Shown one piece after another: positions 40,077-41,045 of a stretch of DNA of 64,000 bases. The notes below the pieces were generated by a model. It saw only the letters and a program-made list of their open reading frames with translations. It was not told the DNA's origin and did no database searches. The position numbers and the translations under genes are program-made. Positions within the stretch are counted from its first letter, which is position 1; each line of letters opens with the position of its first letter. The DNA comes from Escherichia phage WPEC5, in the sequence record PV654397.1, one strand, 5' to 3'.

Positions 40077-41045
40077 TTAAAAATCTTCGAACTCATAACC
40101 TTTTGTCTTAACCATCTTACGCAGTCGTTCCATTGCTTCAGAGTACTTACGGTGCAATGAAGAACGAGCAGTCATGACCTTACCCTTCTCATCTTCAAAA
40201 CCACTCTCAATGATTTCTCGTAGCGTTTCTGGTTCAGAATAAGAACCAATACCATGTACACGTTCAATCAATTCACGGTCTTTGGCAGATAGGTTACTCA
40301 TCATTTCTGCAATACTTTGTACCAGTGGGGTACTGACAGTTTCTACGCCTAAGTTGTAATCAGGTTCAACTGAAGTAACAATGTCAGATAATGTACTTTC
40401 TGAATCATTACTCATTTTCATATTCAATGCTACATAAGTGTTATTGTAAGTTAGACAATTCTTAACGTGTTGAATCTCAATACCAGTCTCTTTTGACACC
40501 ATCTCAGGAGTTGGGTATTTACCATGTTTCCTTTGATACTCTTCTACACAACGTTTCACATAAATGTTATTAACACTCATATAACGTGGGAAATGCACTA
40601 GATAATTAGCATCTGCACTTTCGTTATAGATTGTCATGTACACAGTTGTTGTTGCATATGTAATGAACTTAACATTTTTGGTAGTGTCGAACGTATGAAT
40701 TGCTCGCATTAAACCTTCAACACCATAAGAAATCTTATCTTCAAATGGGATAAAACATGTACACTTACGTGCAACACTTACTACCATTGGATAGTTGTAG
40801 CGAACCAAAAGGTCAATGTTCTTTTCAACGTCAATACCATCACGCACTGCTTGGATGAGCATTTCATTCGTTATCCCTTTAGGGCGAGTTAAGCTGATAC
40901 CTGTTTTTGGTTTCTCAAACTTGTGACCGTCATGTTCTTCTTCTTCTTCGACGGAATCAAGAGCCTCTAATACGTTGACTTCTTCACTAGCAAAACACTC
41001 ATCCAGTACTTCTTCAGAAATTGCATTTAAATCAAGCTTTTTCAC
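40077..41045 (-). CDS. sigma-70 family sigma factor
   Basis: region 2-like YGVEGLMRAIHTFDTTKNVKFITYATTTVYMTIYN and region 4-like C-terminus; acidic N-terminus. Confidence 0.7.
   Translation of the reverse strand: MKKLDLNAISEEVLDECFASEEVNVLEALDSVEEEEEHDGHKFEKPKTGISLTRPKGITNEMLIQAVRDGIDVEKNIDLLVRYNYPMVVSVARKCTCFIPFEDKISYGVEGLMRAIHTFDTTKNVKFITYATTTVYMTIYNESADANYLVHFPRYMSVNNIYVKRCVEEYQRKHGKYPTPEMVSKETGIEIQHVKNCLTYNNTYVALNMKMSNDSESTLSDIVTSVEPDYNLGVETVSTPLVQSIAEMMSNLSAKDRELIERVHGIGSYSEPETLREIIESGFEDEKGKVMTARSSLHRKYSEAMERLRKMVKTKGYEFEDF

Follow-up and report, generated by a model that had tools for sequence, protein, structure and literature searches.

The window analyzed here, a stretch of 64,000 nucleotides (nt) from Escherichia phage WPEC5 (record PV654397.1), carries on its minus strand a gene for a protein of 322 amino acids (aa). 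Profile searches, structure and literature (PMC5259590, PMC7824862) support the protein as a genuine sigma-70-family factor. We tentatively read it, at a probability slightly short of even, as an initiation factor in the middle of a transcription cascade, which would run from host sigma-70 to this phage sigma factor, acting at promoters of the form TGRRAC-N14-TGnTATAAT (here called M-class), and on to a gp55-like sigma factor. The sigma gene itself adds nothing new; what it leads to is a testable three-step cascade (TTGACA-type, TGRRAC-N14-TGnTATAAT and TAAATA promoters) for a phage group whose transcription is unstudied in the papers searched. The more novel object in the neighbourhood of the gene is a large structured RNA. 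An earlier sequence-only reading, which took this RNA for a leader of the sigma gene and proposed TAAATA sites as targets of the sigma factor, has to be corrected on both points: the leader is a separate RNA gene, and the sites are most likely late promoters of the T4 type.

The Protein Is a Sigma-70-Family Factor With Altered DNA-Reading Residues

The list of open reading frames (ORFs) of the window confirms a 322-aa ORF at exactly 40077..41045 and places it on the minus strand with a GTG start. In Pfam, Sigma70_r2 (PF04542) matches residues 80-142 (E=2.6e-9, 37.2 bits against a cutoff of 24) and Sigma70_r3 (PF04539) matches residues 163-225 (E=1.3e-11, 44.9 bits against a cutoff of 25.3). 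The protein also matches PHROG 351, "RNA polymerase sigma factor" (2.7e-48), and only this PHROG, not the gp55 profiles phrog_234 and phrog_12791. Among the NCBIfam models RpoD_Cterm (TIGR02393, 2.4e-27) and RpoS (5.9e-23) are found, all with scores far under the family cutoffs (the best is 96 bits against an equivalog cutoff of 354 for RpoD_Cterm), and the protein is therefore a sigma-70 relative and not an orthologue of any cellular sigma factor. The closest sequences of solved structures are SigB, SigA and RpoS, and the top Foldseek matches are RpoS and SigA holoenzyme chains, the best being RpoS 5ipl_F (E=5e-11, 263 aligned columns). Thus, the assignment to the sigma-70 family that had been made from the sequence alone stands, with significant Pfam matches for regions 2 and 3.

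Region 4 was not matched by Pfam Sigma70_r4 (PF04545) in this protein even at E<=1, and the domain was found in none of 11 close homologues. Both misses are explained by an insertion of eight residues in the turn of the helix-turn-helix (consensus GFxDxxGK, predicted local distance difference test (pLDDT) of about 88), which is retained in most of 20 aligned clade sequences, a few having it changed or shorter. Alignments and an AlphaFold model nevertheless predict a region 4 in this protein. The alignments reach residue 320 with RpoS and residue 309 with SigB, TIGR02394 covers residues 80-320 with positions 51-282 of its 285, and L252, L275, R294 and L308 are common to cellular RpoDs. The AlphaFold model was built on 30 sequences and has a mean pLDDT of 70.7; its predicted template modelling score of 0.36 is low, so that the placement of the domains relative to each other is not predicted. 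Confident blocks cover residues 60-146 (regions 1.2/2), 154-200 (region 3) and 234-314 (region 4), the last being a C-terminal four-helix domain with a pLDDT of 77-90 (helices 234-250, 254-264, 275-280 and 294-314). The region 4 similarity which the sequence-only reading had called clear is thus visible in long alignments and in the model, but "clear" was an overstatement.

The N-terminus gave no match to Pfam region 1.1 (PF03979) or region 1.2 (PF00140). The first 50 residues contain 16 Asp/Glu and 5 Lys/Arg, in agreement with the acidic N-terminus noted before, and residues 1-51 are predicted to be disordered (pLDDT below 50). This part starts with a conserved, amphipathic motif, MKKLDLNAIxDEVLDECF, that is invariant in 11 homologues down to 48% identity and present in most of the wider clade. 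Lacking the region 1 matches and scoring under the NCBIfam cutoff, the protein falls outside the group 1 primary sigma factors (RpoD orthologues); its predicted architecture, 1.2-2-3-4, is that of group 2/3 sigma factors.

The core-binding residues of region 2.2 are kept, with D103, G108, G111, M113, A115 and Y130 shared by all aligned cellular RpoDs, and binding to core polymerase is predicted. F127, Y130 and others are also retained in the segment that melts the -10 element in sigma-70. Several DNA-reading residues are changed. In the numbering of Escherichia coli sigma-70, the W433/W434 dyad of region 2.3, which serves in promoter melting, is TT in the window, SS in the 121Q type, SA in RaK2 and TT in CBB. 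Further substitutions in region 2.3 are Q437 to M and T440 to Y; H455 to Y and E458 to V affect the region 3.0 positions used for reading the extended -10 element, and in region 4 the equivalents of R588 and E585 are not kept. These losses, together with an acidic N-terminus that could mimic DNA, would fit a decoy or competitor that occupies host core polymerase or the partners of the host sigma factor and shuts off host transcription. A pure decoy would not need DNA-facing modules, however, and all four of them, including the recognition helix of region 4, are conserved in the clade, as are Y130, F127 and other residues of the -10-melting region; we regard the decoy as very improbable.

Beyond region 4 the protein ends in a conserved acidic and aromatic tail, KGYEFEDF (residues 315-322, 40077-40100 on the minus strand; KGYEYEDF in the 121Q type). 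This tail or the invariant N-terminal motif could be a candidate docking site for a partner protein. The tails by which T4 gp55 and gp33 bind the clamp came to mind as relatives, but the motifs match poorly and the idea was dropped.

The Gene Belongs to a Known Sigma Family of RaK2-Like Jumbo Phages

The region of the window is 99-99.8% identical to the Escherichia phages Ecwhy_1, fEgEco12, WPEC3 and others, which are jumbo phages of about 350-385 kb, and about 80% identical at the nucleotide level to 121Q, PBECO4 and UE-S1, which are classified as Asteriusvirus. The source of the window is a RaK2-like (Asteriusvirus-type) jumbo coliphage. Protein identity of the sigma factor is 99% to Ecwhy_1 and fEgEco12, 59% to 121Q and PBECO4, 39% to RaK2 and 37% to CBB; the Ecwhy_1 product, 99.7% identical, is annotated as "similar to RNA polymerase sigma factor", and fEgEco12 g519 spans the same stretch. 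The records of the relatives name the gene "RNA polymerase sigma factor". With tblastn, one copy per genome was found in 73 phage records, with hosts from Escherichia, Klebsiella, Salmonella, Erwinia, Yersinia, Cronobacter, Pectobacterium, Serratia and Xanthomonas. An exhaustive profile search set 19 full-length representatives (E<=1e-30) apart from generic sigma factors, which start at about 1e-27, and one cluster of this search contains the sigma proteins of RaK2, K64-1 and Muenster. The window protein shares full-length similarity, the N-terminal motif and the region 4 insertion with the RaK2-like clade of RpoD-like sigma factors.

The sigma gene is already known, since it is annotated in relatives and covered in the literature. 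Group 2 jumbo phages have been described as having no polymerase of their own and as encoding a minimal gp55-type sigma factor plus an RpoD-like one (Iyer et al., PMC7824862), the orthologue CBB_513 is mentioned in the CBB paper (PMC5259590), and the gene is listed in the Sharanji, phAPEC6 and fEgEco12 papers.

The Sigma Gene Closes an Operon With a Host-Type Promoter

The GTG start is supported by the N-terminal motif, which is common to homologues down to 48% identity. A gap of 22 nt separates the gene from the ORF before it, and the gene closes an operon of four genes that runs from 42252 down to 40077, within a near-continuous run of small minus-strand ORFs that extends from about 12.9 kb to the end of the window. 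One of the co-transcribed genes, coding for 165 aa, has a weak match to the HslV family. Upstream of the operon, the nearest sigma-70-type site within an intergenic gap is a host-type promoter (Table 1). Altogether, 21 strict TTGAC[AT]-N16-18-TAnAAT sites were found in the window and all 21 are on the minus strand. As one of these near-consensus host-type promoters heads the sigma operon, the sigma gene is most simply an early gene made by the host sigma-70 holoenzyme. The orthologue CBB_513 has been placed in the predicted early region of CBB (PMC5259590).

The operon ends at a strong terminator, a hairpin cassette that the sequence-only reading had also seen: the terminator scan found an 11-bp stem (40072-40047) plus a T-run, and the hairpin begins 5 nt past the sigma stop codon. 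This copy of the cassette does not have the TATAAT that is found in other copies. The same reading had put the gene downstream of a long ORF-free leader, which does not hold for a minus-strand gene that follows the preceding ORF so closely; the ORF-free stretch (39508-40011) is 3′ of the terminator and has its own promoter.

A Promoter Class With a Lineage-Specific Box at -35

Sites were compared with the sister genome TH47 (MT446416), which was assembled and is collinear with the window. Alignment of the intergenic regions of TH47 on TGnTATAAT revealed the M-class, which was then searched as [GT][GA]GACA-N12-14-TGN-TA[TC]AAT with the expectation taken from Markov simulations. TH47 contains 22 sites where 0.3 would be expected. 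Each of the 22 is on the transcribed strand, and 18 are intergenic, although intergenic DNA makes up only 9% of the genome. In register, the class reads TGRRAC-N14-TGnTATAAT, which puts the box at the place of the -35 hexamer with a 17-nt spacer. The genes downstream are of the middle type and code for primase, exonuclease, single-stranded DNA-binding protein, an endonuclease, a nudix hydrolase and the gp55-like sigma factor; the class also precedes the transfer RNA (tRNA) cluster and all four copies of the structured RNA. In the window three M-class promoters were found, one of them right after the sigma terminator in an arrangement that is repeated in TH47, 121Q, CBB, GAP32, Serratia BF and Yersinia phages. 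Another is found immediately before the tRNA cluster, a position from which expression of the tRNAs together with the middle genes would follow.

The positions of the M-class promoters are conserved across genera with diverged flanks, and the box differs by lineage: TG[GA]GAC in Asteriusvirus, TGAAAC in CBB, GAP32 and Serratia BF, and TGGAAC in Yersinia phage Yen9-04. The recognition helix of the sigma factor differs as well, being (A/S)RSS(L/I)HRKY in Asteriusvirus and SKATLSRRY in CBB and Yen9-04. Region 4 of sigma-70 is assumed here to be identical across the Enterobacterales hosts. A box that changes with the phage lineage though the hosts are all Enterobacterales thus points to a phage-encoded reader. 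Because the box is at -35, is lineage-specific and varies in step with the recognition helix, we assign the M-class to the sigma factor of the window, a sequence-based assignment that may well be right but that we put below an even chance. For CBB and GAP32, TGAAACG promoters termed "divergent RpoD-like" have been described ahead of genes for DNA synthesis and ahead of the gp55-like gene, CBB_244 in CBB (PMC5259590), and the M-class is their equivalent. A literal search of the window for TGAAAC, the middle motif of the CBB type, gave nothing useful. A search for enriched k-mers in the unclassified intergenic regions returned ribosome-binding sites only and no fourth promoter motif; 134 of 237 intergenic regions fit no promoter class.

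The TAAATA Sites Most Likely Serve a gp55-Like Late Sigma Factor

According to the sequence-only reading, the 322-aa sigma factor drives a TAAATA-N3-TATAAT promoter class of the plus-strand genes. The motif is real: TAAATANNNTATAAT has four exact matches in the window where 0.14 would be expected, each of them on the plus strand, and they precede members of an array of RCC1-like paralogues (1-12893) and the gene at 45820-46977. For the proposal speak the over-representation and strand-specificity of the sites, a TATAAT that might in principle be within reach of a sigma-70 relative, and an altered region 2.4 of the phage factor that would leave room for an unusual -10 element. In the seven promoter-bearing plus-strand gaps, however, only TAAATA is invariant (7/7). 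Four of the gaps have TATAAT as second hexamer and the other three have TATATT, TATAAA or TATAAC, two of these variants losing the T at -7 that sigma-70-type -10 elements need. TH47 has 43 TAAATA sites 8-65 nt before start codons, with a peak at 25-35 nt; they mostly precede large genes of the late or structural genome part, and no TATAAT is conserved 3 nt downstream, most of these sites lacking it. Furthermore, a TATAAT used as -10 element would start the transcript only about 10-15 nt before the start codon, and region 4 would find no -35-like partner, since the space is filled by the terminator hairpin.

The TAAATA sites agree with the T4-type late promoter TATAAATA and with the ATAAATA late motif reported for the relatives CBB and GAP32 (PMC5259590), and a gp55-like sigma factor is encoded in the lineage (PMC5259590). 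In TH47 its gene is at 267312-268148; its product has 75% identity to CBB_244 and is matched by both phrog_12791 and phrog_234, so that the T4 gp55 late-sigma profiles, which the window sigma factor fails, are matched by a different gene of the lineage. The TH47 gene was located only by way of CBB_244, as a tblastn search of TH47 with T4 gp55 gave weak matches only, the best of which (E=0.3, not significant) is on region 2 of the sigma gene itself. With TAAATA alone invariant, the match to the T4 type and a separate gp55-like gene, the plus-strand TAAATA promoters most likely belong to the gp55-like late sigma factor and not to the 322-aa protein, for which we now consider them an improbable target. 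A gp55-like gene of its own elsewhere in the lineage means two separate factors with separate promoter classes.

As a separate observation, [AGT]TAAATA is depleted about three-fold in TH47 (170 copies against about 534 expected), and 36% of the copies are in the 9% intergenic fraction. This looks like selection against stray late promoters.

A Possible Three-Step Cascade

The cascade that we favour would begin with the host sigma-70 holoenzyme making the phage sigma factor early. The factor would then bind host core polymerase, as these phages encode no polymerase of their own, and direct it to the middle promoters TGRRAC-N14-TGnTATAAT, with the remodelled region 4 reading the TGRRAC box at -35. 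The acidic disordered N-terminus may act like region 1.1, to which it is not homologous, and keep the free sigma factor off DNA. M-class promoters would drive the replication genes, the tRNA cluster, the copies of the structured RNA and the gene for the gp55-like late sigma factor, which would then serve the TAAATA late promoters. More specifically, the rebuilt DNA-reading surface, without the W-dyad and with a β-hairpin-like insertion in region 4, might read the lineage-specific TGRRAC box plus the extended -10 element, with a regulon that includes the gp55-like sigma gene and the family of three to four paralogous RNAs of about 460 nt; for this detailed version our confidence is low.

Several points weigh against this cascade. 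TGnTATAAT is a perfect, textbook extended -10 element of sigma-70, and host sigma-70 could read the M-class alone or with a helper of the MotA/AsiA kind. The phage factor is changed in the very residues with which sigma-70 reads the TG and -12 (W433/W434 to T/T, Q437 to M, T440 to Y, H455 to Y, E458 to V). The co-variation of helix and box is based on two lineage groups only, one M-class site precedes a gene resembling a head-maturation protease, and the searchable literature gave no experimental study, of expression or of binding, on any member of the sigma family. A head-maturation protease gene would be late in T4.

The first two of these points fit a different division of labour, in which host sigma-70 reads the M-class through the extended -10 element, alone or with a phage activator bound to TGRRAC in the MotA/AsiA style, and the phage sigma factor does another job, either as a stand-in once the host factor is inactivated or at promoters too few or too degenerate to form a motif. 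T4 middle promoters are built in this way, from a sigma-70 -10 element and an upstream box bound by a phage protein. AsiA has been reported in some group 2 jumbo phages (Iyer et al., PMC7824862), and the large fraction of intergenic regions in no promoter class leaves room for other targets. Against this speaks that the box is at the position of the -35 hexamer and not at -30 as the MotA box, that it changes by phage lineage together with the recognition helix, that no other enriched motif is there for the phage sigma factor to read, and that a conserved, single-copy factor found throughout the clade would be left without a visible regulon. We consider reading by host sigma-70 unlikely, though a serious alternative to the cascade with the phage factor as the middle step.

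A Large Structured RNA Lies Beside the Sigma Gene

The ORF-free stretch 3′ of the sigma terminator begins after an M-class promoter (40012-40039) and contains no sense ORF of over 43 aa. It is a large structured RNA without a match in Rfam 15 or the papers searched. Rfam at the gathering threshold identified only tRNAs in the whole window, and Rfam 15 at E-value thresholds gave nothing credible for the stretch and four divergent copies. The RNA is about 96% identical at the nucleotide level in 121Q, PBECO4 and phAPEC6, where the adjacent sigma protein is 59% identical. It occurs in two to five places per genome, four in most, and wherever both positions were compared, in six genomes, one copy follows the sigma gene at a distance of 0.1-5 kb. 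Copies of about 70% identity are found in CBB, GAP32 and in Serratia, Erwinia, Yersinia, Salmonella and Klebsiella phages, mostly unannotated in GenBank.

Since the fold of the single sequence is not significant (z = -1.39), covariation was needed to show the structure. RNAalifold on 21 distinct aligned copies yielded 54 pairs in 12 helices, and 29 of the pairs have compensatory double changes. Pairing is possible in 98.9% of cells, compared to 35-47% with slid partners, and the covariation score is 0.462, compared to 0.05-0.09 in controls, with none of 500 shuffles reaching 0.462. With nhmmer, homologues were found only in contigs of RaK2-like phages. A loose three-block pattern run over bacterial genomes gave at least 120 matches, none of those fetched being a homologue by nhmmer, and is thus uninformative. 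For RNase P RNA, transfer-messenger RNA, 6S RNA, a group I intron or a T4-like origin transcript there was no sequence or Rfam support, the origin idea being judged without a dedicated test. In the distant relative PA5oct four unexplained non-coding RNAs have been reported, two of them abundant throughout infection.

In TH47, at L006:46553-47197 on the minus strand, which is orthologous to about 39560-40010 of the window, an inserted gene for a 214-aa HNH endonuclease separates the RNA from its M-class promoter, and this copy of the RNA has its central part replaced. An HNH gene is also present in the window, at 38182-38976, a short way downstream of the RNA. It seems that genes for homing endonucleases gather near this strongly conserved RNA.

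Other Features of the Window

The positions of the features are compiled in Table 1.

Table 1. Features of the 64,000-nt window of phage WPEC5 discussed in the text.
Feature	Position	Strand	Evidence or context
Sigma-70-family gene, 322 aa, GTG start	40077..41045	-	ORF list, Pfam r2 + r3, PHROG 351
Shine-Dalgarno sequence AGGAG, 6 nt 5′ of GTG	41052..41056	-	direct sequence reading
N-terminal extension, residues 1-50: MKKLDLNAIxDEVLDECF, then variable Asp/Glu-rich linker	40896..41045	-	composition, alignment, pLDDT
Sigma region 1.2/2, residues ~55-146	40608..40883	-	Pfam r2, alignments to RpoD
Sigma region 3, residues ~154-225	40371..40586	-	Pfam Sigma70_r3; model helices 154-199
Sigma region 4 (predicted), residues ~236-314, recognition helix TARSSLHRKY	40104..40340	-	AlphaFold, RpoD alignment
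8-residue insertion in region 4 helix-turn-helix turn, residues ~282-291	40173-40202	-	RpoD alignment
Three genes co-transcribed before the sigma gene (86 aa, 139 aa, 165 aa)	41068..42252	-	ORF list
Host-type promoter of the sigma operon, TTGACT-N17-TACAAT	42292..42320	-	promoter scan; intergenic gap 42253-42326
Intrinsic terminator of the sigma operon, cassette hairpin AAAGGGTTGACTTCGGTCAGCCCTTT + T8	40039..40072	-	terminator scan, repeat family D9, cassette list
M-class promoter tGGGACA-N13-TGATACAAT	40012..40039	-	right after the sigma terminator; heads the ORF-free stretch
Structured non-coding RNA, ~460 nt, covariation-supported core 39593-39965	39545..40005	-	covariation
Host-type promoter TTGACA-N17-TAGAAT for the next genes (39205-39414 onward)	39479..39507	-	promoter scan
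Second M-class promoter, TGGACA-N14-TGATATAAT	55556..55584	-	directly upstream of the tRNA cluster
Third M-class promoter	63291-63318	-	promoter scan
Ser, Met, Asn tRNA cluster	55130-55549, 52786-52858		M-class promoter 55556-55584 (-) upstream
TAAATATAGTATAAT, TAAATA-N3-TATAAT site	687..701	+	motif search
Further TAAATA-N3-TATAAT sites	1950-1964, 3969-3983, 45783-45797	+	motif search
Dual-purpose cassettes	16235-16264, 18030-18059, 19903-19932, 20626-20655, 24922-24951, 27965-27994, 31559-31588	-	repeat and promoter scans
Promoters with CAGTACTG in the spacer	22474-22501, 33340-33367, 37650-37677, 56316-56344, 56738-56765	-	

The hairpin cassette GGGTTGACTTCGGTCRGCCC has about ten copies in the window. 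Eight of them double as promoters close to the consensus: the stem contains the TTGACT, and TATAAT follows after a spacer of 18 nt, in six copies with a TG extension. In these dual-purpose cassettes GGGTTGACTTCGGTCRGCCC plus the T-run is the terminator and also the source of the -35 element, and the next gene is about 25-40 nt downstream. In some host-type promoters, which form a subclass, the spacer contains the palindrome CAGTACTG right next to the -10 element (TTGACn-N9-CAGTACTG-TATAAT), and AGTACT is also frequent in other intergenic regions of TH47. The palindrome may be a binding site for a regulator.

The RCC1-repeat array on the plus strand consists of about 11 paralogous genes of about 375-395 aa, all starting with ATGTTACCT; several are preceded by a GCCAGTACTnnnTACTGGC hairpin plus a TAAATA late-type promoter, and a reverse ORF (11041-11691) is embedded. 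Eleven RCC1-repeat genes have been reported for phAPEC6. At 16700-19850 and 56776-57262 dense direct repeats of 84-224 nt (families D1-D3 and D13-D14) run across small minus-strand ORFs, and these regions include three tandem paralogous ORFs of 54 aa with a periodicity of 161 nt.

Comparison With Known Systems

The phage protein has the predicted domain order of E. coli RpoS (5ipl_F) and RpoD, 1.2-2-3-4, with no non-conserved insert, and the region 2.2 residues are conserved between them. It differs by an identity of only about 24%, by scores far below all NCBIfam equivalog cutoffs, by the replaced equivalents of W433/W434, Q437, T440, H455 and E458, by the region 4 insertion and by the loss of R588 and E585; its N-terminus is unrelated to region 1.1. 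T4 gp55, which works with gp33 and the gp45 clamp, is likewise a phage sigma factor on host core polymerase and showed the weak region 2 match (E=0.3), which would agree with a distant homology of region 2 but is not significant. It is a minimal sigma factor that has neither region 3 nor region 4 and reads TATAAATA.

The resemblance to Bacillus phage SPO1 gp28, which acts on middle genes, and to gp36 of coliphage phiEco32 is one of proposed mechanism only. In both systems an early phage sigma factor displaces the host sigma factor on core polymerase and switches transcription to the next temporal class. Their promoters are non-host at both -10 and -35, whereas the candidate M-class promoters keep a host-like -10 element. 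The true counterparts are RaK2 YP_007007399, 121Q gp167, CBB_513, the GAP32 protein and fEgEco12 g519, which are orthologous and agree with the window protein in the N-terminal motif, in the absence of the W-dyad and in the insertion of region 4. From these RaK2-like ("group 2") RpoD-like sigma factors the window gene shows no difference of substance, and it is another member of their family.

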